Below, piece by piece: positions 1,987 through 64,000 of a stretch of 64,000 bases of DNA. The stretch spans positions 253,952,001-254,016,000 of the forward strand of contig OZ360219.1 in assembly GCA_977017645.1 (NCBI GenBank). Reading direction: 5' to 3'. The DNA is from Torpedo marmorata (lineage: Eukaryota). Position 1 is the stretch's first letter. Every line of letters starts with the position of its first letter. The position numbers and the translations under genes are program-made. The notes beneath the pieces were generated by a model. That model searched no databases. It was not told the DNA's origin and saw nothing but the letters and a program-made list of their open reading frames with translations.

Positions 1987-2062
1987 CCCTCATGACTTTA
2001 TGGACTTCAATATGATCCCCTCTCAACCTCCTACCCTCTAACGAATACAGGCCTAGTTTTTC

Positions 2063-5014
2063 ATGTCTCTCAAGACAACTGTAATTTGGGAATCTTTAAA
2101 AGCATATTTAAGAGGTTTGATAATAAGTTTTTCGGCAAAAATTAGAAAAGATTATTTGAAAGAAGAAGAAAAATTGGAAGGGGAGATTGAATTTATGGAA
2201 AAAGATTTTCAAAGAAATAAAACAATTTTTAAGAGACAACGTTTAATTGGGAAAAAATTACATTATAATATATTACAAACTCGAAAAATAGAAAAATTAA
2301 TTGGTAGAACAAAGCAAAGATATTATGAATTGGGAGAAAGAGCACATAAAGTTTTAGCATGGCAATTAAAAAAAGAACAAGTTTCTAAAACTATAAATGC
2401 TATAAAGAAAAGTACCGGTGAAATAACTTATAAACCTCAAGAAATAAATAATTCATTTAGAGAGTATTATCAGAATTTATACACTTCGCAGATGAATCAA
2501 GATGTTACAAAAATTGATAATTTTTTATCTAAAATTACATTGCCTAAATTGAATAGTTTTAATAGAGATTTGTTAGATTTACCCATTACAATGAGAGAAG
2601 TAGGTGAAGCTTTATCGTCATTGAAAAGTGGTAAATCTCCTGGTGATGAAGGATTTCCGATAGAGTTTTATAAGAAGTTTAAAGATTTATTGATACCTAT
2701 ATATATGGAAGTGTTGACTCAAATAAAGGAAACTCATTTATTACCGAAAACATTTTTAAATGCTATTATTACAGTTATACCAAAGAAAGATAGAGATGTA
2801 TTAAAAACTGAGTCGTATAGACCTATATCACTGTTGAATGTAGATTATAAAATAATGGCAAAAATTTTGACAAATAGATTAGCTAAGTTCTTACCGTTTT
2901 TAATACATCCAGACCAAGCAGGATTTATTAAAAATAGATATTCGAAGGATAATATAGCAAGATTAATAAGTTTAATTAATTTACAAAAAAGGAAACAGGA
3001 TTTGCCGTTAGTGATAGCATTAGAGGCAGAAAAAGCATTTGATAGATTAGAATGGAATTTTTTATTTAAGGTTTTAGAGAAATATGGATTTGGAAATATT
3101 TTTATAAATTGGATTAAGACTATATATAAGGAACCTACAGCTAGAGTAATTACAAATGGTCAAATATCATCTAAATTTTCCTTGACACGATCAACAAGAC
3201 AAGGATGTCCTTTGTCACCTGCTTTGTTTGTATTGGCAATAGAACCGCTGGCTGAAATGATTAGGAAAGATATTAATATAAATGGGATTAAAGTAGGTGC
3301 AGAAGAACATAAAATTAGTTTGTTTGCAGATGATGTATTAATATATATGACGAAATCTATTGAATCGCTTCAACAATTAGATAAGATATTGAGGGAGTAT
3401 GGTGAGATATCTGGATATAAAATAAACTCGGATAAGAGTGAGATAATGGCTTTATCTCAAGGAGACTATACTAAATGTAAAGAAGTTACAAAATTTAAAT
3501 GGGCTAAAGAAGCAATTAAATATTTGGGAGTTAAAGTAGATACAAAATTGGAAAATTTATATAAATTAAATTATATACCTTTATTTCAGAAAATAAAGAA
3601 AGATTTGGAAAATTGGAAAGATTTACCTATAACTCTAATGGGAAGAGTGAATTGTATTAAAATGAATATTTTTCCAAGAGTTCAATATCTTTTTCAATCT
3701 ATACCTTTTGGTATTCCTCAAAAATTTTTCAAAGATTTAAAAATCATTGTTAGAAAGTTTTGATGGAAAGGAAAATTAGCAAGGGTAAGTATAGATAAAT
3801 TAACTTGGGAATACGAAATGGGTGGATTACAGCTTCCCAATTTTCAATATTACTATAAGGCAGCACAATTAAAATTTATTAATGAATTTTTTGACTTAAC
3901 TAAAAATACTGCTTGGATTAATATAGAATTGAGTAATATAGGGGAAAGATATAAGGAAGATATTATTTATAAATGGAATTCTAAATTATTATTAATTAAA
4001 AAGAAAAAATCACCGATTATTAAACATTTATTGGAAATTTGGACTCAGTTAGATTATGAGATAGGACGAAAAGGATCAATATCTTTAAATATGCCATTAT
4101 ATCAGAATTTATTGTTAGCTTTTTCTATTGATAACCAATTTTTAAAATTATGGTATCAAAAAGGAATTAAGAAGATTAAAGATTGCTTTGAGGCGGGAAG
4201 ATTTGTTACTTTTTCTAGGTTGAAAGAAAAATTTGGAATAATGGATAATACGATTTTGGCTTATTATCAGGTTAAAGGATTTTTAGTTGAGAAATTGGGG
4301 AATCAATTAATATCTCCTAGACAAGATGGATTAGAGTTACTAATTACTAATGGAAATGTTAATAAATTTATATCACAAATGTATAAACTACTTCAGAGAA
4401 AGATGCCTAAAGTAGGATTACATAAATCTAGATTAAATTGGGAGTCAGATTTAAATATTAGTATAGATGAACAACATTGGAAAGAATTATGTAAATTGAG
4501 TATGACTAAAATTATTAATGTTAGATATAGATTAGTACAATATAATTTTTTTCATCAATTATATATAACACCTAAAAAATTAAAGAAATTTAATCCGGCA
4601 TTATCAGATATGTGTTTTAGGTGTAAAGATGAAATAGGTTCTTTTGTACACTGTACATGGTCATGTTTAAAAATTCAAAATTTTTGGTCTAAAGTTAAGG
4701 ATTTTTTAGATAGAATTTTTAATATTACGATTCCAATGGATCCTATGGTATTTTTATTTGGAGATATTAAAAAAATTAGTATTAGAAATGGATTGAATAT
4801 GTATCAAATAGAATTTTTACGAATTGTGTTAGCGATTTCAAAAAAATGTATCGCTATTACTTGGAAATCAGATTTAGATTTGAATTTAGATAGACTACAT
4901 GCAGAATTACGTTCTTGTATACCATTGGAAAAAATTACATATAATTTACGAGATAAATATCATTTCTTTTTGAAAATTTGGAGCCCATATATGAGAATTA
5001 TGGGTATGAATTAA
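2063..5014 (+). pseudogene. L1 ORF2 (RT plus C-terminal CCHC region, no endonuclease) with one in-frame stop
   Basis: ORFs 2063-3763 and 3818-5014 share a frame, separated by TGA at 3761-3763. Motifs YRPISLLNVDYKI, TRQGCPLSP, LFADD, GGLQLPN, CFRC..GSFVHCTWSC. Confidence 0.9.
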
Positions 5015-15900: not shown

Positions 15901-16741
15901 GGGAGAACTTGCAGATTTATTGAGAATAAAGGCTTTGGGTGGCTTTCTTTAGGTTTCTGAGCATTAGTAACAAGACCAAACTTGATCATACACAGTTCCT
16001 CGATACACCTGACAATAAACAATTTAATTTAAATCATACCTCCTATCTGTCAGCATGGAAAGGCAGCATGGATAATAAATTTCACGTGCTTCAAATAATA
16101 CTTGCAAAACTAATTTTCAGTTTATTTGAAAGATACAGAATGTGTTAAATATTCACAAGATTATTAGGAAAAAGCTTCGATATAGACCTGCTGCTGCTAA
16201 GATGTACAGTGGGAAAGTCTGTGCACTGTAGATGCTCAGAATGCACAGATGTGCTTAAAAACCCTGACCCAGTTCTCTGAGTTTGAAACATCATTTAAAG
16301 CCCAGGCTTCTGTAACAGTCTGAAGTCTTCATGTGAAAAGTTCATTGACGACAGTAAACTGAAAATTAAGGCATAAATGAAACTCTGTCATTGTGTTGCT
16401 TTTAATTTTCTTTAATTCACTAATTTCAGCTGAAAATGTTCAATTATTGACAAATGAAAATAAAGTATTTCAGAAAGTTTATAAAGCGATTCAGTTCGTT
16501 TACCTGTGGGACGGTGAAATGCTAATATGCTTATATCAGTCTTAATCATAATATATTTTTGCATTTAAAATCATCTATATAACTGTTGGCACAAAAGAGC
16601 ACTTGACAATAGGTCAATGCAAAGCATTAATTAATGTATGTGAGATTTAACCATGAGCAAATGCAGATCACAGCCAAGAGCATTAGCCATAATCTCATTA
16701 TTGTACTATTAGCTATTTTTTTCAATCTATTATTCATTATT

Positions 16742-20060: not shown

Positions 20061-20284
20061 CCAAGATGGCAGACCCCATGGTCCTCACACGGCGCTGCCG
20101 GGTTGGGAAGATGGCATCGTCTAAGATGGCGGCCCCCATGGTTTGCACGCGGCGCTCCTGGGTTGGGAAGATGGTGTTGTCCAAGATGGCAGCCCCCATG
20201 GTTCGCACGCGGCGCTGCTGGGTTGGGAAGATGACGTCATCCAAGATGGCGGCGCCCTCTGCTCGAACGCGGCGCTGCTGGGTC
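20061..20284. repeat. 60-bp tandem repeat, ~3.7 copies, between gag and protease
   Basis: C(C/T)AAGATGGC recurs at 20061, 20121, 20181 and 20241. Confidence 0.92.
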
Positions 20285-21080
20285 TAGCGGGCGGTTGGGA
20301 CTTACAGACATTCGCGTAGTGCCCCTTCTTCCTGCAGTTATCGCAGACCGCGTCTTTTGCCGGGCAGCGTTTCCGGGGGTGCTTATCCAATCCGCAGAAG
20401 TAGCACTTCGGCTGGTTGCAGGTCATAGTAGCCGTTGTCGAGTCGGTAACGGAACGTGGCGGTGTTCCACAGGCTTGCGACCCTCCTGCTTCCCAAGACG
20501 GCGGCGCCCGCGGCAACCACAGAGTGGCCGCGCTATCGGCCGAGTATGCGTCCATGTTTTGGAGGGCCACTTCTAATGTGTCCGCTAGGTTTACAGCCCT
20601 CCACAAGTCGAGCTCACCTTGCTCCAACAGTCTCTGCCTTATGTAGTTCGATCGGATACCGGCAACATAGGCATCCCTTATGAGGTCCTCTGTGTACGTC
20701 GCAGCCGTAACGGCCGCACAGTTGCAGGCCCGTCCGAGGGTTTGCAGGGCTAGTAGGTACTCATCACTCGATTTCCCAGGTCGCTGTTTTCGGGTAGGTA
20801 GGAGATGTCTTATGTAGACTTGGTTTACCTTCCTCAGGTACTGGCCTTTTAGCGTGTCCATAGCCTCCTGGTAAGATTCAGCATCCCTGATCATCAAGTA
20901 CACCCGGGGCCTGACCCGGGAATGTAGTAGTTGTAGTTTGTCGTCTTCCGATTGGACGACAGTAGCGGAGACCCTCAAGAATGTCTCGAAACAACACAGC
21001 CAGTGTTCGAAACAGTTGGATGCTTCTGGTGATCAAGGATCTAGCTCCAACTTTTCCAGTTTCAGGTACTGGTCAATTAT
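20121..21080 (-). pseudogene. Mag-like gag with two CCHC zinc knuckles
   Basis: LIRDAYVAGIRSNYIRQRLLE; CYFCGLDKHPRKRC and CDNCRKKGHYANVC. Upstream LEKLELDP*SPEA contains a stop. Confidence 0.85.
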
Positions 21081-22210
21081 TGAAAACAATGTGAATAAAA
21101 TTGATGCACCATCAATAACTCCAAAGACTAGAAGTTAGACAGGAACTGATAGGCTTTTATTCACATTGGAATGGATGTACACTCCTGGTGGTCGTCTGAG
21201 CTGGAATGGGGAGGGAGCTGTGGCACAATAGCCTTTATTCAGGGGTCTGTGGGAGGAGCCACAGGTACAGCCATTAAGGGGCATGTCCAGACGACCATGA
21301 ACATATCTACATGCATTTACAGTGGTTTATCACACCCTCCATGGACGTGGACCTGCTTAGACCCTCCAGCTTCTCAATGTCTGCTCAAAGTTCCATCATC
21401 TGCAATTCTTGTGTTATTCTAGATACAGACATACTAAATATTTGGTAGCATTGGGATTTATGATACATTCAAAGGCATGTCGGTGCAACATTTGGTGCTG
21501 TCAAATCATTATTTGATAGCTGTATTGCAGAACACAATCCAAAAACATCTATTTTAGGTGTTTGATGGTTATACTGTGGAATGCATAATGGAATATTCCT
21601 TTAAGGCACTTGACAGCGTGTGAAGCACTGTAACTGTGGAATGTGTCTAAATTAAGCAAAGCACTCCTCCATGATTTTGGTTCTCCCTTGAAGGTAGGGC
21701 TTTAATGGCAACAACCCACAGTATTCCTTTCAGAGAGAACGACACATAGTTCAACCCAAGTAATATTTTAAATGAGAACTATGCATAGTTCAAAATGAGA
21801 GAAGCCTTAAATGTTTGCTGCATCAATACTGTATATTTTTTACCAGAATAAAGCTAGTTTATAATATTGAATTAGCTGCAAATTTAATGTTTATAGATGA
21901 CAATGTAATGAGTTATTAAGCAAATTTTGCAGGTGAGGTTTACAGATTTGTTAAAACATTTTACCAATTTAAAACGAGAATTGAATGTGAATTTCTACTA
22001 AATTAACTACACTTTATCATTCAAAATGTTTCAATGATAGTAGGATGACCATTTAAAAAAATGTTTTCTACCTATTTTCCCAAGATCAGGCAACATACAG
22101 TATCTTTGACTCCATCATGCCCCAAATGGATTGTCTATCTTGTAATTCAAAAGCTGGGATGTTCCTGCTTGTGGATACCTCCTTCGAAACCAATGATGCT
22201 GATTTGTTAA

Positions 22211-22951
22211 TGTAGCGACTTCGACCAATAAAATAGTCGCTTGGAGGCTAAGTTAGGCATTTGTCTGCGACGCGTTTTCATTTATTTCCAATACAAGTTC
22301 AGTTGTATTTAAATTCTTTATTTTTAACACACAAAACTTGTAACCATCTTCTTTAATGTTCTATGAAAAGTCTTTAAGTAATGTTCTATGTGGCTGATTC
22401 TTAATAACAAAATATTCATATAAAAGTTAACGTGGCTTAACGATGCTTAACGATCTTTAACGATGTTCAACGATATTCAACATAGTTCAACGATCTTTAA
22501 CGTCTTGATGATGCTTAACTTTCTTTAACGCTGGCTTGACGTGTTTTAAAGGTGTTTTAAACGGTCGACAGAAATTGTCGACACCTAACTTACCCTCCTC
22601 AGATTTCCAACTGACGACTTGCGCGGGGGAACCTATATTTAAATGTACGAAGATCCCACCCGCGCATGCTCCGTTGTGCACGCGCTGGCCCCGGCTCCAA
22701 CCGTTCGCTGCCAGCACTGAGCCAAGTGCACGTGTCGACCCAGTCCATGGCCCATGCGCACTGGCGGACGCGCCAGCCCCGGCTGAAGCCGCTGCCGCTG
22801 AACCAACCGCGCATGCGCCGCCACGTTCCGGCTCCGTAAGCGGTGCCGGCCCTCGCGCATGCGGCCTACGGGAAGAGGCCTACGCACCCTGGGACACCGC
22901 CAGTGCCCGAGGCCAAAACAGCAGGTAAGTACTGAGCCTATGGCTCTTACA
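22211..22951 (-). repeat. 3' LTR of the BEL element
   Basis: 741 bp, near-identical to 27354-28095. Contains a 10-bp T(T/C)AACGATNN tandem array (~22427-22520) and a CpG-rich U3. Confidence 0.95.
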
Positions 22952-23215
22952 CCGGCCCCTAATTATTATAATGAGATGTAACGTCTCTAATAATAATTAC
23001 ATAACTATAATCTATTATATAACAATTAACTACATAACATTCGAACGTTACACAGGTCTCTTTTCATCTTCACTTCCACTCTGAAGTCCGTGTAGTGGGA
23101 AAAGTACAAAACACAAAAATCCAACAAAATAAAGGCAGTTTGTACTTATTAAAGTTCCTCCGTCTACTGTAGAATCCATGAGCCAAACCGTTGACCAGCA
23201 AACCTCAGATCTTCC

Positions 23216-24210
23216 TCAGACAGAATAGACACAGCTTTCCTTTTTGAATTTAACACAAGGCACTTCTTCAACATGTCGTTTCACTTTATTTCTTTTTTCA
23301 GTATTCCACTTCTTTTGTGAGGAATTTAAACTCTTAGAACTGGAATTTGAATATTTATTTGATCCTTTCGATTTTAAACAGGTCTGTTTAACCACTCTGG
23401 TTTCTATTGCCTTTTCCTGCAATTCCAAATCCAATTTTGCAACTTTCAATTCCGTCTCAGTTCTTTCCGAGAAATTAATAATTTGATCTGAAGTCAAAAT
23501 ATCATGTGATACGTTAATATTTCCATTGTCAATCCTGTTGCGACAAACTTGAAATTTTTTAATTTCTTCGTCTTGCTTGTTACATTTCTGCAATGCAATA
23601 TCACATTCTTTCTGCATTGTTAATTGTTTTGTGTTATTAATCAATAACTTGTTCTCTTTCAAAACATTAATCTCTTCCTCCAACCTTTAACATTTTGATA
23701 ATGCTGAATCTCTTTCCTCGATAACTGTATTCATTTCTTCAGCAGTTATTCTTTTCTTCCGTTTTCTGACTTTGCGAGTTTTACTTACAATTAAATCTTT
23801 CTGTTTACTGTTTTCTTGATTATCTAATATTTCCAATTCCCCTTTCAACATTTTGTTCTCTGAATTCAATTGCATTAGATTATCATTCGCATTATTCTTT
23901 ATTCCATCAGCACAATTTTCTGTGTTTTCCAGTTTTACATCACATTGTAATCTTTCTTCGTTAGCTTTGTCTGTTGTAATCTCTGAACTACAAAATCTAC
24001 ATTCAGATTTGTTTTCAGTCACTTGTTTTATTCCTGTATTGGATTCAATTACACATGAATGATCAATAGTATTATTTGCAACATTTTCTAATACTTCACT
24101 TTCATCCATTTCTGACGAAATTAATTCCTTCAATGTTGTTTTAAATACCATTGATTTATTTTCACATTGATCTGTTTTCTTTTTTTCAAAAGTGATTTTC
24201 TTATTCACGG
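23216..24210 (-). pseudogene. MIPOL1: MIPOL1-like coiled-coil segment fused in frame after the BEL protease (one TAA at 23687-23689)
   Basis: RITAEEMNTVIEERDSALSKC*RLEEE matches my recollection of vertebrate MIPOL1 RITAEEMSALIEERDAALSKCKRLEQE. KLDLELQEKAIETRVVKQT resembles KFKLELQEKETEAKIAEKT. Intronless. Not verified by search. Confidence 0.65.
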
Positions 24211-26974
24211 TTTTTTGCTCTTCGCTTAACTCTTCAACTTTCACAACCGAAATTCTATTAATATTTATCGCTAACTGTTCCTGAGCAATATCATTATTTC
24301 TTTCCAGTGGTCCATTGATTGTCCAACCAAACTTGGTTCTAATAGCGTAAGGTCCATTCCTTTTACTCAATATTACTTCTTTCGGTTCCAAAACCTTTGG
24401 CACATCTGAACCAATCAGCATTTCTATCTCAGAATTAATTTCAGGTAAATAAACCTTCCACAGATAAGCTAAATGATGGATATCCCTTTGATGAGGAATA
24501 TTTCCTTCATTCACAGGCATAGTCTTCTGAGTATATACACTTGGAAGATCACAACATTTTTTGTCATCCAATCCAGCAACCTCTAAGCCTGAAACAATGT
24601 TAGTTTCAACAACCCTTTCTTGTCCCATGGTTTTTAACATAATTCTTGATCTTCTTCCTTGAATATTAAGTTTATTCATTAGTCCTTCCGTGCAAAAAGA
24701 AGCAGTGCTGCCTGGATCTAAAAATGCATATGTTTTTACTATTACATCCCCTTTCTTGGCCTTGACTTGTACAGGCACTATTGAAAGTTTGCAGTTATCC
24801 ACACCGGCCCCAGTAAGACCACTTGTCTGAACCGAGGTTATAACATTATTTTCTGTTGTTTCCTTTGTTTCTGTTTGCTCTTTTCCCAATTCCTTGTTTC
24901 TGTTATGGATATGCAAAATTCTAGGATGTTTCAAATTGCATATGTTACAATTAATTCGCTTCTCACAGTTTTTACTGATGTGTCCTTTACACAAACAGCT
25001 AAAACATATTCCATTTTCCTTTAAGAAAGCGATCTTTTCCTTATGTTCCTTCTTTTCCAATCGTAAACACATTTCCAAAGCATGTCCACCTTTACAGAAC
25101 AAACAACTCTTTTCATTAGGCAAACTTTCCTTTACCTTATTTACTTTGTCCTTTTCTTTACTTATAACTTGCACATTAGTAGCAAAAGTACTCCTTTTTA
25201 CTTTCGGACTAGACTGTGTGTTAAACTTCCTTACATCTTTGCCCATTGAATTATCTCTGGTATTTCCATATAGTGGATCTGTTTCAACGTACACCCGTCG
25301 TTCAAGAAAATTTACCAAATCCTTTAAGGTAATTTTTCGACCGTAATCTACTTGTAAATCACAAGCCAAATTTCTCCATCTATCCCATAACTTATAAGGT
25401 AATTTTTCTAAGATGATTCGCATATTACTATGCACATCCAGCTCACGAATATTATCGATTTCTTCCATAGCATTACAACATCCTCTTAAAAACAGAGTAT
25501 ACTCTTGCAGAGCCTTTACATCATTTTGTTTTATTGATGTCCAATTAAGAGCTTTATCCATATAAGCTAAAGCAATTCGATGCTTGTTGCCAAAATATTG
25601 TTCCAATAAAGCCTTAGCTTTGTCTAATCCTCTTTCTGAAGACATTTGTTTACAACTCTTTACCAGTTCTTTTGGATGTCCCTTTGTGAACATTTCCAAA
25701 TAATAAAGACATTCATCACGATCTTGACATTTATCTTCAATATTGCGTTTGAAAGATCTCATAAATGATTGATATTGAAGTGGATCACCATCAAAGGTTT
25801 GTATCTCTTTTTTGGGTAAAGAAGAGAGAGACTGTAACTGAAACAATGATGCAGCAATTTCATTTTGTCTTTCCTTGGACGACAATACATTGCTCTGTTC
25901 ACTGTTTCTTGTTGCATGCAATGTATCTGGAAACCTCACTGGTGTAGTTTCTTCCATACTTCTGATGCTTGACTCATATAACAAAGAAGCTGCTTCGTTC
26001 GACCGAACCCAAGCCGCAGCTTTGCTTTCAGATGTTACTATTGGTACATGTGACTCGATACCAATATGCTCTTGATAGGTTTGTCCTTGTATATGCAAGT
26101 TTTGTATCCTTGGTTCTAAAATATCTATCCTTTTGGTTGGTTTCTTTTCCTGTGACTCCTTTTTTAAATATGACCTTTTATTATCAGACAATTTAGATAA
26201 TTTACTGCTAGCACCAGATACCATTGAGCCTTCTATTGCTTTCTTTTCTGCCTTGGCAATAGCAATGTTTGCTTCTAGCTCCTGCTGTTCTTTTCTCTGC
26301 CTTAGTTGCTCCTTCTCTTGTCTTAGCTGCTCCTTTAGCTGTTTCTCATTTTGTCTTAGCTGCTCCTTTACCTGCTCCCCCTTTTGTCTTAGCTGCTCCT
26401 TTAGCTGCTCCTCCTTTTGTCTTAGCTGCTCCTCCTCTTCTTCCAAAATATATTTATCCTTAAGCGTTTTTTGTTGTGCAAGAAGAGCGGCCAATCGAAC
26501 ATCAATCTTTGTATGTGACGATGCAGAACTTGAAGTACGAGAAACTCTGGAGCTCGAACCAGAACTTCTTTTGCTTCTCCTGCTTTCAGCATTTGAGACA
26601 CTGTCACTTGCTTGTATTTCGTCCTGCAGTTCATATGTTGTCTTCATACTTACCTCTTTATCCAATTCGAATTGTATATCCTTTGCATCTTCAACCACTT
26701 CAATTTCTTCATCATTTGTTGACACAATTTCAGCCATTTCCAAGTTATCTTCTTGTTCATTTAATGAGGCTGCCTCTTCATCCTTTGCCTGCTTCAATCT
26801 TTCGATAAGAACCCTTTTATTTCCTCTTATGTCCTTTTTCATTCGCTTCAATTCTTCTTTAATATCCGCAACCTTCATGTCTTCAATACGTTGGTCCTCA
26901 ACAGCAACATCAGCGGTTGCTGCGTCAGCTGCTGATGTATCAGTAGCTGCTGTATCAGAGGCTGCTGCGGCCAT
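23687..26974 (-). CDS. SAP domain - BEL Gag (coiled coil, DUF1759-like, three Cys/His knuckles) - aspartic protease - coiled-coil fusion protein
   Basis: Open frame 27037-23687, likely ATG at 26974 (AAAATGG). SAP MKVADIKEELKR..DIRGNKRVLIERLK; FDGDPLQYQSFMRSF; CLFCKGGHALEMC, CFSCLCKGHISKNC, CNICNLKHPRILH; AFLDPGSTASF; GPYAIRTKFGWTINGP. The frame continues to 23216 past one TAA. Confidence 0.85.
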   Translation of the reverse strand: MAAAASDTAATDTSAADAATADVAVEDQRIEDMKVADIKEELKRMKKDIRGNKRVLIERLKQAKDEEAASLNEQEDNLEMAEIVSTNDEEIEVVEDAKDIQFELDKEVSMKTTYELQDEIQASDSVSNAESRRSKRSSGSSSRVSRTSSSASSHTKIDVRLAALLAQQKTLKDKYILEEEEEQLRQKEEQLKEQLRQKGEQVKEQLRQNEKQLKEQLRQEKEQLRQRKEQQELEANIAIAKAEKKAIEGSMVSGASSKLSKLSDNKRSYLKKESQEKKPTKRIDILEPRIQNLHIQGQTYQEHIGIESHVPIVTSESKAAAWVRSNEAASLLYESSIRSMEETTPVRFPDTLHATRNSEQSNVLSSKERQNEIAASLFQLQSLSSLPKKEIQTFDGDPLQYQSFMRSFKRNIEDKCQDRDECLYYLEMFTKGHPKELVKSCKQMSSERGLDKAKALLEQYFGNKHRIALAYMDKALNWTSIKQNDVKALQEYTLFLRGCCNAMEEIDNIRELDVHSNMRIILEKLPYKLWDRWRNLACDLQVDYGRKITLKDLVNFLERRVYVETDPLYGNTRDNSMGKDVRKFNTQSSPKVKRSTFATNVQVISKEKDKVNKVKESLPNEKSCLFCKGGHALEMCLRLEKKEHKEKIAFLKENGICFSCLCKGHISKNCEKRINCNICNLKHPRILHIHNRNKELGKEQTETKETTENNVITSVQTSGLTGAGVDNCKLSIVPVQVKAKKGDVIVKTYAFLDPGSTASFCTEGLMNKLNIQGRRSRIMLKTMGQERVVETNIVSGLEVAGLDDKKCCDLPSVYTQKTMPVNEGNIPHQRDIHHLAYLWKVYLPEINSEIEMLIGSDVPKVLEPKEVILSKRNGPYAIRTKFGWTINGPLERNNDIAQEQLAININRISVVKVEELSEEQKTVNKKITFEKKKTDQCENKSMVFKTTLKELISSEMDESEVLENVANNTIDHSCVIESNTGIKQVTENKSECRFCSSEITTDKANEERLQCDVKLENTENCADGIKNNANDNLMQLNSENKMLKGELEILDNQENSKQKDLIVSKTRKVRKRKKRITAEEMNTVIEERDSALSKC
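26285..26436 (-). repeat. 33-bp coding tandem repeat (EQLRQKEEQLK-like, 4-5 copies) in the Gag coiled coil
   Basis: Repeated ttagctgctcc units. Confidence 0.8.
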
Positions 26975-27353
26975 TTTACTCGTCTTGTTCCTCTTTCCTT
27001 CAAGCATACACAATACCAGCCAAACAACAGTCCCCAATGGACCAGCGGCAGCAATTCCAATCTGTGTTCTTACTTACTAAAGATACACAGAAGGAGTCCA
27101 CACACTTATGCCAACCACTTCAAATGACTGTAATGTGCTGCAATCCACAACGAGTTTTTTTATCTTCTTTCCTTCTATTTTCTGTTCCAAACAGCCAGCT
27201 CTTTATTGACTATGTAGATTGCGGTGACTTCGATCCAACGTTGGTCACCTGGAGGCTAAGTGTGGTCCTTATGTATCTGGAAACCTCACTGACCCTCCTA
27301 ACATCTCCTTCCTATCCTATTTTCCGTTTCAACAAAAATTTCTGTCGACTTAA

Positions 27354-28095
27354 TGTAGCGACTTCGACCAATAAAAATAGTCGCTTGGAGGCTAAGTTAG
27401 GCATTTGTCTGCGACGCGTTTTCATTTATTTCCAATACAAGTTCAGTTGTATTTAAATTCTTTATTTTTAACACACAAAACTTGTAACCATCTTCTTTAA
27501 TGTTCTATGAAAAGTCTTTAAGTAATGTTCTATGTGGCTGATTCTTAATAACAAAATATTCATATAAAAGTTAACGTGGCTTAACGATGCTTAACGATCT
27601 TTAACGATGTTCAACGATATTCAACATAGTTCAACGATCTTTAACGTCTTGATGATGCTTAACTTTCTTTAACGCTGGCTTGACGTGTTTTAAAGGTGTT
27701 TTAAACGGTCGACAGAAATTGTCGACACCTAACTTACCCTCCTCAGATTTCCAACTGACGACTCGCGCGGGGGAACCTATATTTAAATGTACGAAGATCC
27801 CACCCGCGCATGCTCCGTTGTGCACGCGCTGGCCCCGGCTCCAACCGTTCGCTGCCAGCACTGAGCCAAGTGCACGTGTCGACCCAGTCCATGGCCCATG
27901 CGCACTGGCGGACGCGCCAGCCCCGGCTGAAGCCGCTGCCGCTGAACCAACCGCGCATGCGCCGCCACGTTCCGGCTCCGTAAGCGGTGCCGGCCCTCGC
28001 GCATGTGGCCTACGGGAAGAGGCCTACGCACCCTGGGACACCGCCAGTGCCCGAGGCCAAAACAGCAGGTAAGTACTGAGCCTATGGCTCTTACA
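27354..28095 (-). repeat. 5' LTR of the BEL element
   Basis: 742 bp. On the minus strand: TATA-like TTTAAATATAG (~27777-27787), Inr-like TCAGTT (27753-27758), splice donor GTAAGT (27737). Confidence 0.95.
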
Positions 28096-31000
28096 GTTAA
28101 TTACAGAGGACACAGGCTTAATTGCTGCAGAAATAAACTTGAGCCGATGAATAGCTTGCATTCCAAAATCTGGATTCCAAACTCTGTCAGACACATGTCC
28201 CCAGCACTCAAGGCTTTTAATCCTGTATCTATCATGTTTCGTCATATTTTAGTGAAATGTTTGTTTATGAAATACCACATTTTATGATATTTTAAAACCA
28301 TTTTAATGTTGGGAAGTGTTATGTATACAAATTGCATTTAATCCTTGCTGTCCTTTATTGAGCATTCAAGAAACAGGCTAGAGGCACACAATTTAACTGA
28401 CCACCAAGTTTCCATTAAAAGGACTCAGGCAGAGTTATTTCATGTTTGGTGGTAAAACTGAATCAAGCTTGATTTTTACCCATCATTGATTGGGTCACAA
28501 AAAATATTAATATTATAATGTAAACACGACTTCTTAAAATTTTCCACACTACACTTGGAAAACATTGGTAAATTTGCATGGAAATTTAGTTTTCAAACAT
28601 ATATACAACACCAATAAATGGTCAGGGATGTTAAAGTAAATTATTTAAAATGGACTTTGTACAAAGCATCTTCCTTCAAAATATTCACATAAAAATGTTT
28701 TATGTTACATTTATGTAAAATAACAATCTTAAATGATTGAAACATATGGCATTGTAATCTAAATATGAATCCCTAATGTATTCTTTGAAAAAAAAACTGA
28801 ATACTGATTTTTGACACCATTTGTCACAGATGTGTAATGTAGCATTGCATTTCCTGAAGCAAATGCAAGAGGGAAGATTAAAATTTAGCAGGAAAGAAAA
28901 GTGAGTCATCTCTGATGGATTTTGGATGCAAATAGTGTTGGTATACAGAGCAGAAAATATCATGCAACAGTAAATGAGGCCCTGCAAAAGCATATTTCCC
29001 TTGCAGTCATCATGAAAGCCTCCCCACGCACTATCCACACGAGCTTAAGTTTCAAGCCCATGGCTGCTGACACATCTGGGCTCACATCCTGCTGATTTTG
29101 CATTTCTAATCCTACCCAAAGTGCAAAGTTACAAAGTGCACAGCTAGGGCCCATAAGATTGATCTGGGTGCATGCTATGTCTATTAAGGGCAAAAAGCAG
29201 CTTTCAGAACCCCCATAGTTCACTAAAAGACCAGTCTAGTTGATAAATAGGCTTCCTTTTTGCAATATTCCATTGATGATCCTGGCCTTTGAAATTACAT
29301 CAGAAGCTATCCTGATACTTGAGAAACTTCCACTAAAAGAACCCACAGGACTCTATCATCAACTTCCCTTTAATCTTTGCTGAAGTCTTGATCTTGCCTA
29401 CAGGACAACCCTAAAGGGGTGAATTCCCCCATTTTTATGAATGACATCAATTTAGCCTGAGTGAAGTGGATGTGGCTGGGATTGGGGATCAGTGGTAGGG
29501 AGAAGGCTGCATTGTGGTAATTGGGTACTAGAGTTGTGATCTTAGTGATTAGGATCAGTATATATTTCCCCTCTGCATGCAGATTTAAGTGAGTTTGGGG
29601 GTTTTAGCTGACACAAGTATGACCTCGAGGATACTTTAGCCTCTTAGTTTCACAGCACTTGTGGTATATGTTAGGAGCTAACATACCGCAAGAGGCTGAA
29701 AAATGAAGTTCAGTTGTGCCATGTTGGAAAAGGGGCTGTGGAGTTTGCCCCAGACAGATCAAAGACCAGACATCAGTCTGCAACTTTGTATGAGGGCATT
29801 CAAAGGTATTAGTTTAAAGAAAAAAATATCCTTTTAAATTCAGGCATCCAGGCCAAAATCCCAGCCTTGAGCCACAGTGGATGGGGCGCTACATGCAATA
29901 CTCAATTTGTTCAAGTTCATGGCGTCTATTCATTTCTGAATTGTTCTGAGAAATAAGGATGCCGACTACTGAGCTGCTGCACATAGGCCTGTCCATGACC
30001 CAGCTCTTGCTTGATTTGGGACAGATAGAGGCTTTGGTAGCACATCCTCAAATCTCAGCCCCAAACCCCTTGTCATACACTCCCCCCGCTCTCTCTCTCT
30101 CTCTCACACAAGCGCACGCGCACGCACATGCACACACTCAAATGGACTTCAGCCTAGTCCATGGCGCTTACAGGAAACATCCAAAGAATTTTGGGAGATC
30201 TGTATCGGTTCAACCCTTGCTTTGTAGGTAACATTTGAATAGCTGGAGAGACCTATTGCAGGTTCAATTCTGGTTCTTACCTGGAGCACAGGGGGAGTTG
30301 AAATAAATAGTACTAAGCTTGGATGGAAATGAACAAGTTACAGATTTCCTGCAGACTTACCATTCTCCAGCAGTCCTAGTTCAGAAAACATTGACTACTT
30401 TTGGATTTGAAGAACTGTAAGCATGGGACAGGTGACAACACTCTCTGATAGAGTTCCATTGCAAGAGCTTGCATTCAATTTGAACTGAGATGAATCAGCT
30501 ATTCGTTCTAATTTTAATAAATTAGCCACACTCATTTGGTGATTGTTAATTTCCCACAATTTGTAATAATAGGTCCTTCATGAAATGGGGAATGACGTAA
30601 AATAACTGAACAAATCAACGTTTATCAAGTGCAGTGAATGCAATACCAATATATTGTCATATGGGAGACAACTCTGATAAAACATAAAATTCAGAATTAA
30701 CAGTTGTTATGCATATCTCTTTGGGAAAACAGCTCAAATCATGAATAACATTATAATCAATAACTATTTTGTACTTTTTGTTGAAACACTGAGTGCTGAT
30801 TACATCTTCAAGGGAGATTGGATAGGAGGAGTTTACTGAAGACATGGTATTAACTTCAGAGAAATACTATGGTTACCCAAGGGGCCTTTGACAATAATGT
30901 GATTTTAATATTGTTAATTCAATTGTGTGATGCTGCTGGGCTTAGTAACCCCACTGAGACAGTTCTGTTGCAGTCATCCTGAGCATTTACCATCAAAATT

Positions 31001-34781: not shown

Positions 34782-37700
34782 ATGGATGTAGAACAATTTT
34801 TGGAATCACCTGAACCTGATACTTTAAAAAAGGCGAAAAAGGAACAGTTAGTGGCTATAGCAACAGAGTTGGGCATTGCTTCTGTAAAACCATCTATGAA
34901 AAAGGCAGAGATTGGGAGAAAAATTGTCAAATACTATATAAAAGAAAATAATTTGAGGAGAGCGTGTTAGAGCAGTTTCCCAAGGGTAAACCTTCTGAAA
35001 ACATACAATTGGAAATAAAGAAATTGGAATTGGAACAAAAGAACAGAGAATTGGAACAAAGGAAATTAGAATTGGAGGTAGACAGGGAACAAAAGAAATT
35101 AGAATTGGAATTGGAACAAAGGAAATTAGAATTGGAGGTAGCCAGGGAACAGAAGAGATTAGACTTGGAGAACGAGGAGAAAAATAGGATATATATGCTG
35201 GAAAAGAAAAAGTTGGAAAATGAGAGGAGACAAGAAGAGCGCCAAGATCAAATTCGTCATCCTGCTGAGGGGTTTTTGGCTAGTAGAGAAGTTAGGTTGG
35301 TTCCTCCATTTGAGGAGGCAGAAATAGATAAGTACTTCCAACATTTTGAGAAAGTGGCTGTGAAATTAAAATGGCCACAAGACCAATGGTCTCTTATGTT
35401 ACAAAGTGTAATTAAAGGAAAAGCTCAGCAAGCTTATTGTACTCTTACCATGGAGCAAGCTGCTGATTATGAAAAGGTGAAAAAGGCTATACTCCAGGCT
35501 TATGAGTTAGTTCCAGAGGCTTATAGACAGAAGTTTAGAAATTTAAAAAGATCAGCAACCCAATCTTATACAGAGTTTGCCTATGAAAAAGTTGTGTGTT
35601 TTGACAGGTGGTGCACATCTAAGGCAGTAAACAATGATTACAATCAATTGATAGAATTGATAATAATCGAGGAGATAAAAAGGTGTGTTCCTGAGGATAT
35701 TAAGGCATACTTAGATGAAAAGGAGGTGAAAACTTGGCAAGATTCAGCTAAGTTAGCAGATGAATATGCTTTAACCCACAAGCCTAAGTGGACGTCAGGT
35801 AGAATTTTCCAAAAGGTCACTGTGGATAATCAGAAGCAAGTAGAAAGTAAATTTGGAAGTGGTGTTAAGGAAAGGGATGAAGGAAAGTGGAAAAGGGAAA
35901 ACAATTCGGGTCCCATTTGCCACTACTGTAGGAAGGCTGGTCATATGCTAGCAAGCTGTCCAGTGTTGAAAAAGAAGAGAGAAAAGGATGCAACACCTAA
36001 TGCTTGTATTCAGAGTGAGAAGATGTATAACACCCAGGAAGGAGATAAATTTACTGACAAAGTTAAAGATGTATTTAAACCTTTTGTGACTGATGGTTTT
36101 GTTTCTGTTAAGGCAGGATCAAAACAAGTTCCAGTGAAAATCTTGAGAGATACTGGAGCTGCTCAGTCACTTGTGTTAGATAGTGTCTTGGAATTTTGTG
36201 AAGCTACTGACACTGGTGACATAAATTTAATTAAAGCAATTGGTGGTGAGGTTGAGTCCATTCCTTTGCACAAAATAGTATTGGACTCAGACTTGGTGGA
36301 AGGACCAGTTATAATAGGAGTGAAATCAGAGTTGCCAGTAGAAGGAGTCTCACTGTTGTTAGGCAATGACTTGGCCAAGGGTAAAGTAGTTCCTGCAGTG
36401 CGAATGACCACTAAGCCAGTCATTGATAAGTCAGAGAAAGACTCTGATATTTATCCGGCATGTGCCATAACCAGGGCCATGTCTAAGAAAAATGTCACTG
36501 TAGAGAAGGCAGTGGAAAATAACTTGGTAAAAGAAAAAGACACTGATAATCAAGAAAACCTGGAAAAGGTTGAGCAATCTCCTATGTTACACCCATCCAC
36601 TGATAAGACACCTAAAGGCACAGATTTGTCACTATCCCGACAGGAGTTAATAGCAAGGCAAAAGGACGATCCTGATCTTGTTGAGGTGAGGGATAAGGTT
36701 CTCTCTGAAGAGGAGATTAAAAAGGTGCCAGTAGGTTATTATGAAAAAGATGGGGTGTTGATGAGAAAGTGGAGACCACGTGATGTTCCTGCCAATGAAG
36801 AATGGGCAGTAGTGCAGCAGGTTGTGATCCCTAAAGTATATAGGGATGCAATAATAACTTTGGCTCATAGTACACCCTTAGGTGGTCATCTTGGGGTGAA
36901 GAAAACTATACGGAAGATAATGAAACAATTTTATTGGCCCAGTTTAAGAAGGGAGGTTGTAAGCTTTTGCCGGGCCTGTCACACTTGTCAGGTGGTGGGT
37001 AAACCTAATCAGGGTCCCCCGGTGGCACCCTTGCAACCTATCCCTGCTTTCAGTGAGCCTTTCTCGAGAGTAATTGTGGACTGTGTTGGCCCATTGCCCA
37101 AAACCAAAGCGGGGAATGAATATTTGTTAACAATTATGTGTGCAGCCACCAGATTTCCAGAGGCCATTCCTCTGAGAAACATAAAAGCAAAGTCAATTGT
37201 AAAGGCTATGGTAAAGTTTTTCACCTTGGTAGGTTTGCCAAGGGAAATTCAATCAGATCAGGGCAGTAATTTCATGTCAGGCGTTTTCCAACAAGTGGTT
37301 GATGGACTTGGAGTTAAACAGATTGTATCCTCTGCGTACCATCCAGAAAGTCAAGGGGCCTTGGAGAGGTTCCATTCGACTTTGAAAACCATGATTAGAA
37401 CCTATTGTTGTGAAAAGGAAAAGGATTGGGATGAGGGGGTTCATTTGTTGTTATTTGCAGCGAGGGAGTCTGTCCAAGACTCACTTGGTTTTAGTCCATT
37501 CGAGTTAGTTTTCGGACATGAGGTGAGAGGTCCTTTAAGATTATTAAAAGAACAGTGGATTAATCATGATGTGCATTTAAATCTGTTAGATTATGTTTCC
37601 AAATTTAAGGATTGATTACATAGGGCTTGTGAGATGGCAAAGGAGAATTTAAAGGCCACTCAACAGAGAATGAAGGTTTGGTATGATCGAAAGGCGAAGA

Positions 37701-47319: not shown

Positions 47320-48418
47320 TCAGAATCAGAATCAGAATCAGAATTTATTGTCATGAACAAGTCATGAAATTCGGTGTTTTGCGGAAGCATCATAGTGCAA
47401 ACATTCATATTATAAAAAAATATATAAATAATAGTGCATGAAAAGTAAGGCAGTGTCTTTGGTTCATTGATTATTCAGGAATCTGATGGCAGCGGGGAAG
47501 AAGCTGTCCTTGTGCCGTTGAGTGCTTGACTTTAGACTCCTGTACCTTTTTCCCAGAGTGAAGAGGGCATGGCCGGGGTGGTGGGGGTCTTTGATGATTG
47601 AGGCTGCTTTTTTAAGACACCGCCTCATGTAGATGTCCTCGATGGAGTGAAGTCTGGTGCCTGTGATGTCACAGGCCAAGTTAACAACCCTCTGGAGTTT
47701 ATTCTTGTCCTGAGAGTTGGCGCCTCCATACCAGGCAGTGATGCAACCAGCTAGAATGCTCTCCATGGTACACCTGTAGAAGTTTACGAGAGTCTTCGGT
47801 GACATACCGAATCTCCTCAGACTCCTCACAAAGTATAGCCGCTGGTGAGCCTTATTTGTGATTGCATCAACGTGGAGGTTCCAGGACAGATTCGCGGAGA
47901 TGTTGACACCCAGGAATTTGAAGTTCTTGACCCTCTCCACTACTGAGCCCTCGATGAGGACTGGGTCATGTTCCCCTGACTTCCTCCTGAAGTCCACAAT
48001 CATCTCCTTGGTTTTGCTGACGTTGAGCTCAAGGTTGTTGTCGTTACACCATTCAACGAGCTTATCTATCTCCCTCCTGTACGCTTCCTCATTGCCGTTT
48101 GTGATTCTGCCGACAACTGTGGTGTCATCGGCAAACTTGTATATGGCATTGGAATTGTGCCTGGCCACACAGTCATGGGTGTATAATGAGTAGAGCATTG
48201 GGCTAAGCACGCATCCTTGGGGTGCGTCTGTGTTGATAATCAGTGAGGAGGAGACATTGTTTCCAATTCGTACTGACTGTGGTCTTCTGATGAGAAAGTC
48301 AAGGATCCAGTTGCAGAGTGGGGTACAGAGGCCTAGAGTTTGTAGCTTCTTGATCAGCACTGAGGGAATAATGGTATTGAAGGCCGAGCTGTAGTCAATG
48401 AAGAGCAGCCGTATGTAT
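47320..48418 (-). mobile_element. Rex1/Babar-type LINE, 5'-truncated, with (TTCTGA)n tail
   Basis: ORF 47464-48360 (298 aa) [29 protein letters not shown]. Highly similar to 705-1986. Tail repeats at 47320-47345. Confidence 0.9.
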
Positions 48419-49019
48419 ACGGTGATGAAGATGATAAAGTAAAGCTTTCAAAACAGGAAGTTGTTCTGTAGAGAAACATAAAAACTGCAAATCTTGAGTG
48501 AACAATGAGAAGCTGGAAGGAGTCCATGGTCAGGCAGCATCCATGGGCCAGTCCTTCTGACTTTAGTCTCATTCTGAGATAAGATAAGACTTTTTCTTGG
48601 AGTAGTTCCAAAACCTGCTGCCACAGCAGACTGAGAAGATGTTACTGAAGGGAGACCATGAGTGTCATGTGTGAGATGGACCATTGGGTGTCTCGTAAGG
48701 ACAGTTGGGTCCAGTGCTCATCATGGCTAAAGTCAGTTGTGGAAGGATCTGAATTATGTCATTTGTTTGCAGGGACCATGTTTTTGAAAGCACTTCTGCC
48801 TTAGTGAGAGATCTAGAAGCCAATCACACTCTGGGGTTCACTGTTCTCACCTGAGCAGGCCAATGTTCAGAATGGACTTTGCAAATGGTCATTTTTAATT
48901 TCCATCAGTCCTGAAGTGAATTATACAAGTTCAATCAAAGGGAGATTGGGAGTTTATAGAGCAACATGTCAGGAAACAGAAAGTACCTTTCAGAAATGTC
49001 TGATAAACTAATGTCCTTG

Positions 49020-61100: not shown

Positions 61101-64000
61101 TAAAACCAAATGATTCGTGGACAGATTCCCTCGCTGCAAATAACAGCAAATGAACCCCCTCATCCCAATCCTTTTCCTTCTCACAACAATAAGTTCTATT
61201 CATATTTTTCAAAGTCGAATGGAACCTCTCGAAGGCCCCTTGACTTTCTGGATGGTATGCAGAGGATACAATCTGTTTAACTCCAAGTCTATCAACCACT
61301 TGTTGGAATACGCCTGACATGAAATTACTACCCTGATCTGATTGAATTTCCCTTGGCAAACCTACCAAGGTGAAAAACTTTACCATAGCCTTTAAATTAC
61401 CTTTGCCTTAATGTTTCTCAGAGGAATGGCCTCTGGAAATCTGGTGGCTGGACACATAATTGTTAACAAATACTCATTCTCCGCTTTGGTTTTGGGCAAT
61501 GGACCAACACAGTCCACAATCACTCTCGAGAATGGCTCACTGAAAGCAGGGATAGGTTGCAAGGGTGCCACCGGGGGACCCTGATTAGGTTTACCCACCA
61601 CCTGACAAGTGTGACAGGCCCGGCAAAAGCTTACAACATCCCTTCTTAAACTGGGCGAATAAAATTGTTTCATTATCTTCCGTATAATTTTCTTCACCCC
61701 AAGGTGACCACCTAAGGGTGTGCTATGAGCCAAAGTTATTATTTTGTCCCTATATACTTTAGGGATCACAATCTGATGCACTACTGCCCATTCTTCATTG
61801 GCAGGAACATCACATGGTCTCCACTTTCTCATCAACACCCCACCTTTTTCATAATAACCAACTGGCACCTTCTTAATCTCCTCTTCAGAGAGAACCTTAT
61901 CCCTCACCTCAGAAAAATCAGGATCCTCCTTTTGCCTTGCTATTAGCTCCTGTCGGGATAGTGACAAATCAGTGCCTTTACGTGTCTTATCAGTGTATGG
62001 GTCTATCACAGGAGATTGCTCAACTTTTTCCAGGTGTTTTTGATTATCACCGAATTTTTCTTTCACCAATTTATTTTCCACTGCCTTCTCTACAGTGAAA
62101 TTTTTCTTAGACATGGCCCTGGTTATGGCACATGCCGGATAAATATCAGAGTCCTCCTCTGACTTATCAATGACTGGCTCTGTGGTCATTTGCACTGCAG
62201 GAACTACTTTACCCTCAGCCAAGTCATTGCCTAGCAACAGTGAGACTCCTTCTACTGGCAACTCTGATTTCACTCCTGCTATAACAGGTCCTCCCACCAA
62301 GGCTGATTTCAGCACTATTTTGTGAAAATGAATGAACTCAACATCAGCCCCAATTCCTTTAATTAAATTCATTTCACCGGTGTCAGTGGCTTCACAAAAT
62401 TCCAAGACACTATCTAACACAAGTGACTGAGCAGCTCCAGTATCTCGCAAGATTTTCACTGGAACTTGCTTTGATCCTGCTTTAACTGAAACAAAACCAT
62501 CAGTTTAAATACATCCCTAACTTTGTCAGTAAATTTGTCTCCTACCTGGGTGTAATGCCTCTCCTCACTCTGAATACAAGCATTAGGTGTTGCATCCTTT
62601 TCTCTCTTCTTTTTCAACACTGGACAGCTTGCTAGCATATGACCAGCCTTCCTACAGTAGTGGTAAATGGGACACGAAAGGTTTTCACTTTTCCACTTTC
62701 CTTCATCTCTTTCCTTAACACAACTTCCAAATTTACTTTCCACTTGCTTGGGATTATCCACAGTGCCCTTTTGGAAAATTCTGCCTGACGTCCACTTAGA
62801 CTTGTGGGTTAAAGTATATTCATCTGCTAACTTAGCTGAATTTTGCCAAGTTTTCACCTCATTTTCATCTAAGTATGCCTTAATATCCTCAGGAACACAC
62901 CTTTTTATCTCCTCAATTGTTTACCGCCTTAGATGTGCACCACCGTTCAAAAGACACAACCTTTTCATAGGCAAACTCGGTGTAAAATTGGGTTGCTGAT
63001 CTTTTTAAATTTCTAAACTTCTGACTATAAGTCTCTGGAACTAACTCATAAGCCTGGAGTTTAGCCTTTTTCACCATTTCATAATCAGCAGCTTGCTCTG
63101 TGGTAAGAGTAGAATAAGCTTGCTGAGCTTTTCCTTTAATTACACTTTGTAACACAAGAGACCATTTGTCTAGTGGCCATTTTAATTTCACAGCCACCTT
63201 TTCAAAATGTTGGAAGTACTTATCTATTTCCGCCTCCTCAAATGGAGGAACCAACCTAACTTCACTAGTGGCCAAAAACCTCTCAACAGGACCACAAATT
63301 TGATCTTGGGTTTCTTCTTGTCTCCTCTCATTTTCCAACTTAATCTTTTCCAGCTCATATTGCCTAATTTTCTCCTCTGCCTCCAAGTCTAATCTCTTTT
63401 GTTCCAATTCCCTGTCTAATTTCTTTTGTTCCCTGGCTACCTCCAAGTCTAAACTCTTTTGTTCTAATTCCAATTTCTTTAGTTCCAACTGTATGTTTTC
63501 AGATGGTTTACCCTTGGGAAACTGCTCTAACACGCTCTCCTCAAACTTTTTCCCTTTTATATAGTATTTGGCAAGTTTTCTCTCAATCTCCGCCTTTTTC
63601 ATTGATGGTTTTACAGAAGCAATGCCCAACTCTGTTGCTATAGCCACTAACTGTTCGTTTTTAGGTTTTTTAAAGTATCAGGTTCGGGTGATTAAAAAAA
63701 AATTCTATCTCCAGTGTTGCTGGTTTATGTTACACACACACTAGCTTTTAACTAGCTTTACAAAAGAATGTCTTAAACCAGACTGGGATTCCTTCAATTA
63801 CCAAGATGGATCTTGATTCAAATCCTTGGACAAGCCCCCAATTTGTTACAAACTCAAACCAGCAACGACAGAAGATGCAATGCAAAAGGGGTAAAATTGA
63901 AATTTATATTTATTAAAGACAATTAAATATATAATTTCTTAACAATTAACCCCACTATAAACGTCTATAATCACTATTCTTATCTAAAGTGTGTGTGTGT
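58183..64000 (-). mobile_element. Second Gmr1-like Gypsy element (same family as 33713-40478), inverted, more degenerate, 5' LTR runs off the window
   Basis: 3' LTR 58183-59035, PPT 59036-59047, degenerate tRNA-Pro PBS 63822-63840, 5' LTR from 63844. ORF fragments are collinear with copy 1. Confidence 0.93.
59170..63720 (-). pseudogene. Fragmented Gmr1-like gag-PR-IN-RT-RH
   Basis: ORFs 62913-63647, 62456-62857, 61392-62459, 61057-61386, 60361-61002, 59948-60367 and 59337-59906 each match the first copy. Confidence 0.9.

Follow-up and report, generated by a model that had tools for sequence, protein, structure and literature searches.

A BEL/Pao retrotransposon family of Torpedo marmorata with three host gene pieces in place of pol, one of them likely copied from a circular RNA

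What takes the place of pol in a retrotransposon that has lost it, and why does the replacement stay open to translation? This question is raised by a long terminal repeat (LTR) element on the minus strand of a 64,000-nt stretch of Torpedo marmorata DNA (contig OZ360219.1, positions 253,952,001 to 254,016,000; hereafter the window, with positions counted from its first letter). The element occupies 22211-28095 (5.9 kb). A preliminary description had proposed a young BEL/Pao element in which a coiled coil resembling the host protein MIPOL1 had replaced pol. We conclude, with a probability of about 0.8, that the element belongs to an abundant BEL/Pao family without pol; that pol was replaced in frame by intronless pieces of BRCA1, MIPOL1 (likely by way of a circular RNA) and Elongin A, together called the cargo below; that the family likely forms its own particles and likely borrows reverse transcriptase (RT) and integrase; and that what is preserved in the cargo is its open frame and not its protein sequence.

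The window copy is a non-autonomous derivative of a BEL/Pao LTR retrotransposon. Its paired TG...CA LTRs differ by 2 substitutions and 1 indel, an exact 5-bp GTTAA target-site duplication stands at both ends, and Gag and protease lie in one frame. This frame, from 26974 to 23216, runs over 1,253 steps with a single internal stop at codon 1096; the alternative two frames hold 88 and 134 stops. Pfam recognised in it SAP, DUF1759 (E 1.6e-5, at the cut-off) and a weak aspartyl protease, then no domain. The protease motif DPGS at aa 753 is identical in a pol-bearing copy from the same genome. RT, RNase H (Peptidase_A17), integrase and DUF5641, all found in the pol-bearing sister copy L191, were absent from the window element, and the YVDD and ADA[SC] motifs seen in the pol-bearing copy were absent from the window frame. 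Similarity to pol-bearing copies is 90-95% over gag-protease and stops at about 24215. The preliminary description had read these points correctly: the young LTR pair, the frame of about 1250 codons broken only by a TAA, the end of BEL similarity just after the protease and the lack of pol motifs. Both breaks in the frame are private to this copy. The stop at 23687 was found in 1 of 38 aligned close copies, and a one-base frameshift near 23241 in 1 of 36 scored copies. Because the latter is private, 23216 is not the usual end of the frame in the family.

The frame that follows the protease is of host origin. Among the 120 listed of 123 protein matches to the tail, all named entries were MIPOL1 save one mislabelled entry, which carries the same Pfam families as the MIPOL1 entries, and the best were MIPOL1 of cartilaginous fishes (rays and sharks, E 1e-17). 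Pfam assigned no family to the tail, nor to true MIPOL1, and the scan is hence uninformative. A generic coiled coil is ruled out by the protein matches together with nucleotide identity to host exons. The assignment of the whole tail to MIPOL1, however, was too wide. MIPOL1 is limited to 23798-23382, and both BRCA1 before it (24219-23799) and Elongin A after it (about 23381-23165) had been missed.

The stretch between protease and MIPOL1 matches Narcine BRCA1 at 69% in an older copy (E 7.6e-56), and the window piece reaches 60% over 142 aa. This match overturned two other assignments of the stretch, as more MIPOL1 (an Atlas search also gave other coiled coils) and as a JIP zipper (Pfam JIP_LZII, E 0.01). 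The stretch after MIPOL1 is Elongin A (Pfam Elongin_A, E 5.5e-16 in an older copy), and the final codons of BEL pol follow it directly. In the host, BRCA1 and Elongin A are each a single locus with introns, and their nearest database relatives are those of Narcine bancroftii (82% and 89% identity, measured on the large exons). In older copies as many as 4 exons of BRCA1 and 5 of Elongin A are joined intron-free, most of this sequence being 91-98% identical to the host exons; younger copies are eroded. Intronless host sequence stands between two LTRs and replaces part of the frame, as in LTR-mediated retroposition.

At protein positions where host and Narcine differ, the older copies side with the host by 16:9 in BRCA1 and 11:1 in Elongin A, one further residue in each gene falling in neither count; capture would therefore date from after or near the host/Narcine split. 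The start of the BRCA1 large exon in the host (G000:C61) lacks 9 nt that are present in Narcine and in the element, and the element therefore preserves an older state of host BRCA1. Only two copies besides the host among 21 candidates (L233 and L234) carry a 5' Elongin A piece ahead of BRCA1.

The order of exons within the MIPOL1 piece needs a separate explanation. Host MIPOL1 is a single locus on contig C40, where we mapped and numbered ten exons across 325 kb. A genome search with shark MIPOL1 gave copies joining residues 214-342 straight to residues from 83. In older copies, 587 contiguous nt run from within exon 7 through exons 8, 9, 3 and 4 into exon 5 at 93-96% to the host, with 4 of 20 older copies shorter or at 88-89%. 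The end of exon 9 and the start of exon 3 share phase, and the joint is in frame and exactly at the splice sites. Alignments over it are gapless for 21 of 22 older copies, which agree with the host at 75-79 of 78-80 nt, for 18 of 20 sampled copies and for the window copy. At the control joints 9-10 and 2-3, older copies align just up to the exon edge. The captured MIPOL1 sequence is confined to exons 3-9, and exon 10 is single-copy in the genome. Exons 3-9 sum to 780 nt and form, when closed, a circle without in-frame stop.

The exact joint at splice sites rules out a random shuffling of MIPOL1 blocks. The preliminary description was right in that the blocks are intronless and that an LTR element captured host RNA, the joints against the single host locus being crossed intron-free, but the blocks are not shuffled. 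Nor was a genomic duplication found that could have given the order: across the 400 kb that contain host MIPOL1, each exon is present a single time, with no second exon 3 after exon 9. A splice-site joint from exon 9 to exon 3, nothing from outside the circle and no poly(A) are what a retrocopy of a circular RNA (circRNA) would show. The joint looks like the signature of back-splicing. A circular template is its simplest reading, and the MIPOL1 piece was likely copied from such a circle.

The element is no one-off accident, since in the 6.2 Gb genome a 23-nt motif from its MIPOL1 piece is matched exactly at 16,523 places and, when up to 2 mismatches are allowed, at 25,274, against 0 for the reversed control. 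A 23-nt pol motif, present in 16 of 17 pol-bearing copies tested, has 3,021 matches, so that cargo matches outnumber helper-pol matches about 8 to 1. If 25,000 copies were full at 5.9 kb they would make up about 2.4% of the genome; some are truncated. Four cargo copies were found in 580 kb not selected for the element, all within the 400 kb around MIPOL1, from which about 40,000 copies can be loosely extrapolated. These surroundings include G000:C40:64.32-64.52 Mb, where these four cargo copies lie within host MIPOL1 introns, maybe by chance; around BRCA1 and Elongin A, none was found in 180 kb. At G000:C1:1498301-1518179, five motif matches evenly spaced at 4,964 nt suggest a tandem array of the element.

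Insertion has gone on recently. Both LTRs were recovered in 27 of 40 copies, namely the window copy and the 39 fetched copies closest to it; the remaining 13 were incomplete or failed end matching. Among the 27, 21 have an exact 5-bp target duplication, 3 have one with one mismatch and 3 have none; their LTR pairs are 0.3-2.2% apart. A search for copies with different duplications, with or without the TAA, had been suggested in the preliminary description. A further 20 copies were sampled at steps from the first 100 exact motif matches (hereafter the sampled copies). All three cargo genes are present in 19 of them, the LTRs are identical in 3 and an unbroken frame of more than 1,260 codons is found in 3. 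Therefore, insertion continued until very recently. When contigs of four sequencing runs from three organisms were compared, a 930-nt contig from another organism's run bridged protease, BRCA1 and MIPOL1 with 23 differences, which indicates presence, not expression. Among the top 150 of 736 protein matches, none had a best stretch that extended over two cargo genes.

Since pol is missing yet insertions are young, the family would be mobilised in trans, as had been proposed, and RT and integrase are likely borrowed from the pol-bearing sister family. For Peptidase_A17, 6,618 candidates yielded at least 150 scored matches. The pol-bearing copies have frames of 2,018-2,134 aa, LTR pairs 97-100% alike and the complete BEL domain set, and they have the polypurine tract and LTR start in common with cargo copies. 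The preliminary description had also suggested looking for an autonomous partner sharing the LTR; its gag-protease does agree with the window at the level given above, but its LTR does so only in part. Older cargo copies reach only 72-79% to pol-bearing copies over gag-protease. An LTR of the helper type, at 85-91%, is carried by 6 of the 20 sampled copies, whose LTR pairs are less than 1% apart, and by most of the very young sampled copies. Three young pol-bearing copies (L191, L193 and L198) have LTRs ending in TA, not CA, as judged by their target duplications, and several young cargo copies do likewise. In a protease tree with 48 rows, 6 being left out because their matches were short, the young pol-bearing copies are nested among young and intermediate cargo copies. 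A two-clade split of cargo and pol-bearing proteases is rejected (approximately unbiased, AU, p 0.00026; 34 rows). The Gag-protease half has therefore been exchanged between the cargo and pol-bearing lineages.

To see which parts of the frame are constrained, the ratio of nonsynonymous to synonymous substitution (dN/dS) was calculated from the commonest codon per column against a natural reference, and for the young cargo against the host. Gag (0.23-0.33) and protease (0.21-0.42), with every interval below 1, are under purifying selection. The young cargo gave 0.53 (bootstrap interval 0.30-0.96) for BRCA1, 0.93 (0.51-1.90) for MIPOL1 and 0.98 (0.45-2.34) for Elongin A, and the cargo of older copies 0.41-0.64 with intervals spanning 1. 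The 205 fixed substitutions across 354 cargo codons include zero stops. A neutral simulation with the same spectrum gave a mean of 10.4 stops, and zero stops in 0 of 20,000 runs. All 8 of 8 fixed cargo deletions are multiples of 3; this count leaves out indels at ragged alignment ends (BRCA1 bins 40-43, MIPOL1 bin 47, Elongin A bins 40-42), indels in under 38 of 40 copies and the 9-nt loss on the host side. When stops were forbidden in the neutral simulation, the number of amino-acid changes, the BLOSUM score and the hydrophobic loss fitted in 6 of 6 gene-by-group tests (two groups of copies; smallest P 0.055). No fixed stops, in-frame deletions and neutral amino-acid change together indicate that the frame is selected and not the host protein. 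The cargo behaves as filler that must stay translatable. Selection on the long frame, suggested in the preliminary description, is in this sense supported; selection on the host-derived domain itself is not supported. G>A, C>T and C>A abound among the fixed changes that separate the young cargo from the host, unlike in older copies, where A>G leads.

The distribution of stops along the cargo was also examined. The 38 aligned close copies (2 further ones were skipped for large insertions) have no cargo stop or frameshift in common; 13 single stops and 6 single frameshifts were counted. The number of copies with intact gag, 2 of 38, is confounded by the alignment of the 33-nt repeats and was not used. 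Stops common to several copies cluster in about the last 15 codons of the cargo frame: one, 15 nt ahead of the old pol stop, is shared by 30 of 40 close copies, and another, roughly 13 codons ahead of that stop, by 10 of 19 sampled copies.

Three other explanations were weighed against these results. The cargo might be a working protein in the manner of gag-onc fusions, with the MIPOL1 coiled coil aiding dimerisation of Gag-protease in place of RT and integrase, or with the Elongin A box, which binds Elongin BC, having recruited a host ubiquitin ligase in older copies. Such a role would fit a frame held open through about 20% divergence, the persistence of all three pieces in nearly every sampled copy, the retention of the Pfam Elongin_A region by older copies (dN/dS 0.41) and the ratio of the BRCA1 piece. 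It is hard to reconcile with the neutral amino-acid change in all six tests, with the internal loss of 45 and 81 nt from the MIPOL1 piece, or with the Elongin_A domain having gone from the window and the sampled young copies, which match host Elongin A over only about 220-230 nt. We therefore consider a working protein improbable, and the likeness to gag-onc function suggested in the preliminary description did not hold up. Joining at the DNA level, in which the pieces were first retroposed as separate pseudogenes or elements and then brought together by nested integration and deletion, is also unlikely, though a little less so. MIPOL1 does adjoin the first base of an LTR start of the old type, as at an integration joint, and the two variant copies with Elongin A ahead of BRCA1 show that rearrangement occurred later. 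However, neither poly(A) nor target duplication was found at the four joints, every piece is sense and in frame, and pol was replaced, not interrupted. Even if correct, this route would alter the origin of one joint and not the nature of the family.

The least probable of the three is that the exon 9-3 joint came from a linear RNA, through a tandem duplication of exons 3-9 that has since disappeared, by trans-splicing or repetition of exons, or because a jump of the polymerase chanced on both edges. It could account for a piece shorter than one lap, and AG closes exon 9 as well as exon 2, a microhomology of 2 nt; the host circle, moreover, is deduced from DNA. But both break points lie on splice sites, all captured MIPOL1 falls within exons 3-9 with single-copy exon 10 outside, and no trace of a duplication is left in the 400 kb around the host gene. 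Copying from a circle therefore seems the better account of this joint.

Whether the element is primed in the usual way is a related question. In BEL/Pao elements, the 5' LTR is expected to be followed by a primer binding site of the tRNA type. A TGG directly after the 5' LTR was found in 0 of the 27 two-LTR copies (no tRNA library was searched). Instead, part of the first 25 nt after the 5' LTR is perfectly complementary to a stretch inside the LTR, over 10-17 nt in 23 of 27 close copies and over 7-8 nt in 4. The young sampled copies checked show a pairing of 10-11 nt in 7 of 7, pol-bearing copies a different yet complementary 10-nt pair in 6 of 6, and the older subfamily its own, again different, complementary pair. 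The 13-nt pairing of the window was reached by 2 of 2,000 shuffles. Tf1 is a self-priming retrotransposon, and at the level of sequence alone the pairing seen here recalls it. On the other hand, the predicted fold of the 5' RNA places the LTR partner of this pairing inside a local hairpin and not in the long-range pair. Priming without tRNA is possible in this BEL family, and a literature search gave no report of self-priming in BEL/Pao among the papers listed.

The following course of events would be consistent with these data. The BEL reverse transcriptase may have switched templates onto co-packaged host RNAs, the MIPOL1 circle included, and so replaced pol. A stub at the MIPOL1/Elongin A joint resembles the LTR start of the older subfamily in 16 of 17 nt, which suggests that the cargo was built in at least two rounds. 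The element would still make Gag and protease and form its own particles, the sister family would supply RT and integrase in trans, the element protease may cleave the cargo, and in-frame deletions would have shrunk the element afterwards. Host coding sequence in the sense direction would serve as ready-made filler free of stops, the MIPOL1 circle being free of them all round. As for the reason why the frame is kept open, translation almost to the old pol stop might protect the genomic RNA from nonsense-mediated decay or decay triggered by a long 3' untranslated region, or else an open frame might favour packaging of the genomic RNA in cis. This putative reason, RNA survival or cis packaging, is the weakest step of our account, and we regard it as evenly balanced; the main alternative is a putative structural role that needs bulk, not sequence.

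Several facts weigh against our conclusion. The upper bound of the BRCA1 interval is just below 1 and the older cargo values are low with wide intervals, so that weak constraint at the protein level is possible. Two deeper cargo stop positions are each common to 2 of 19 sampled copies. Microhomology at the four joints, judged by eye and without a null model, is about 2-5 nt, which is weak support for template switching. The MIPOL1 piece holds three quarters of one lap and never above one lap, and so gives no sign of rolling-circle copying. The window LTR is only about 70% like the helper LTR, in short stretches, and ends in CA as against TA in young helpers; for this reason the pol-bearing copies are only candidates for its exact helper. 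Finally, transcription, the host circle and cleavage of the cargo are read from DNA only.

The coordinates of the element are collected in Table 1. Elsewhere in the window, an 887-aa frame at 34952-37615 (+) with SCAN and integrase domains belongs to another LTR-type element, and RT and integrase fragments of further retroelements lie at 2057-3763 (+), 47464-48447 (-) and 61392-62504 (-). A 303-aa frame at 20121-21032 (-) has a Cys/His knuckle and looks by eye like a Gypsy gag, with no Pfam hit. It also resembles the N-terminal 185 aa of P0125, a Narcine BRCA1 model in which this part may be a mis-joined exon.

Table 1. Features of the BEL/Pao element and its flanks, in window positions
Feature	Position	Strand	Remarks
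Target-site duplication, 5' side	28096..28100		GTTAA on +
5' LTR	27354..28095	-	742 nt, TG...CA
LTR-internal complement of primer-site position	27708..27720	-	13 nt
Primer-site position	27337..27349	-	no TGG tRNA-type start; complementary to 27708-27720; possible self-priming
Leader remnant	27146..27270	-	84-88% like helper LTR end and primer site
Gag	24845..26974	-	3' edge approximate; SAP domain aa 30-63, DUF1759 aa 394-534, three Cys/His knuckles from 25105
Gag 33-nt tandem repeats	26297-26461		
Aspartic protease and eroded first codons of RT region	24220..24844	-	edges approximate
Spliced BRCA1 piece, in frame	23799..24219	-	small exon joined to start of large exon
MIPOL1 piece	23382..23798	-	exons 7-8-9 then 3-4; likely back-splice joint 23538/23537
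Stop codon of window copy alone	23687..23689	-	1/38 aligned close copies
Spliced Elongin A remnant	23165..23381	-	5' edge approximate; private one-base frameshift near 23241
Final codons and stop of original BEL pol	23149..23164	-	
Polypurine tract	22952..22961	-	identical in pol-bearing copies
3' LTR	22211..22951	-	741 nt
Target-site duplication, 3' side	22206..22210		

Acutely transforming retroviruses have a defective genome in which host coding sequence is fused to gag, and they need a helper. In its sequence the present family is alike in all three respects; it differs in that there is no env and that the host part shows no selection at the protein level. If the family is what we propose, a host circle with an endless frame was copied, with BRCA1 and Elongin A, into a family that still inserts, outnumbers its helper about 8:1 and occupies maybe at least 2% of the 6.2-Gb genome; host coding sequence would be used as pure translatable filler, and the whole BEL lineage may prime itself. 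We lean slightly towards this full picture. The primer-site pairing makes priming without tRNA testable in BEL/Pao, and the copies, whose identity to the host grades from about 95% down to about 75%, offer a natural experiment in which selection on the frame is separated from selection on the protein. As tens of thousands of fragments of BRCA1, MIPOL1 and Elongin A lie in a repeat that is likely silenced, it may also be asked whether small RNAs of the element might reach the host genes.

For the published systems, the comparison refers to the accessible portions of the cited reports. Maize Bs1 is an LTR element with three transduced host genes, described as a new chimeric gene (PMC13317346, PMC5131818). 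Both systems hold pieces of three unlinked host genes in the hybrid frame of an LTR element; here, in contrast, the element is a vertebrate BEL/Pao with one back-spliced piece, a selected Gag-protease, more than 25,000 copies and a near-neutral cargo. LTR-mediated retroposition in animals (Tan et al. 2016, PMC5131818) likewise lets host mRNA replace part of the frame, forms multi-gene chimeras that are often in frame and allows further non-autonomous rounds. That report deals with young individual retrocopies with a median microsimilarity of 6 bp, and its main text does not contain the word "circular"; the present family is very large and long-lived, its microhomology is shorter and its frame is selected. 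For pol-less families that keep Gag and need an autonomous partner, TR-GAG (PMC4350172) and RLG_Quinta with RLG_Cereba (PMC11302176) are the closest parallels, but these are plant Copia/Gypsy elements without host cargo in the parts compared. TR-GAG is moreover defined as lacking protease (less than 4 kb, Gag only), which does not apply to a 5.9-kb element with a selected protease.

The exon joint itself has its nearest counterpart in circRNA-derived pseudogenes. Dong et al. 2016 (PMC4897178) described 33 high-confidence copies of mouse circRFWD2 with LTR-rich flanks and left the mechanism open. The non-colinear joint is common to both cases; here it lies in the coding frame of a complete LTR element, at about 750 times the copy number. 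The family would therefore offer a concrete route from circular RNA to heritable DNA, with a product in coding frame and in tens of thousands of copies. In a 2026 preprint (bioRxiv 10.64898/2026.06.26.734816), MIPOL1 is the first of the five most retrocopied genes of cartilaginous fishes, and its retrocopies are read as shaped by selection; the main text does not contain "circular", "back-splic", "chimeric", "BRCA1" or "Elongin", nor an LTR reading. The present family could explain this statistic if the species is in its set, and it warns that surveys of retrocopies, as for MIPOL1 in cartilaginous fishes, may misread a single capture that was later amplified as a gene retained by selection. 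No description of the family was found in a literature search that reached few subscription papers. Each ingredient has its precedent, in Bs1, in the mouse circRNA pseudogenes and in the Gag-only partners, whereas for their combination at this scale we found no report.

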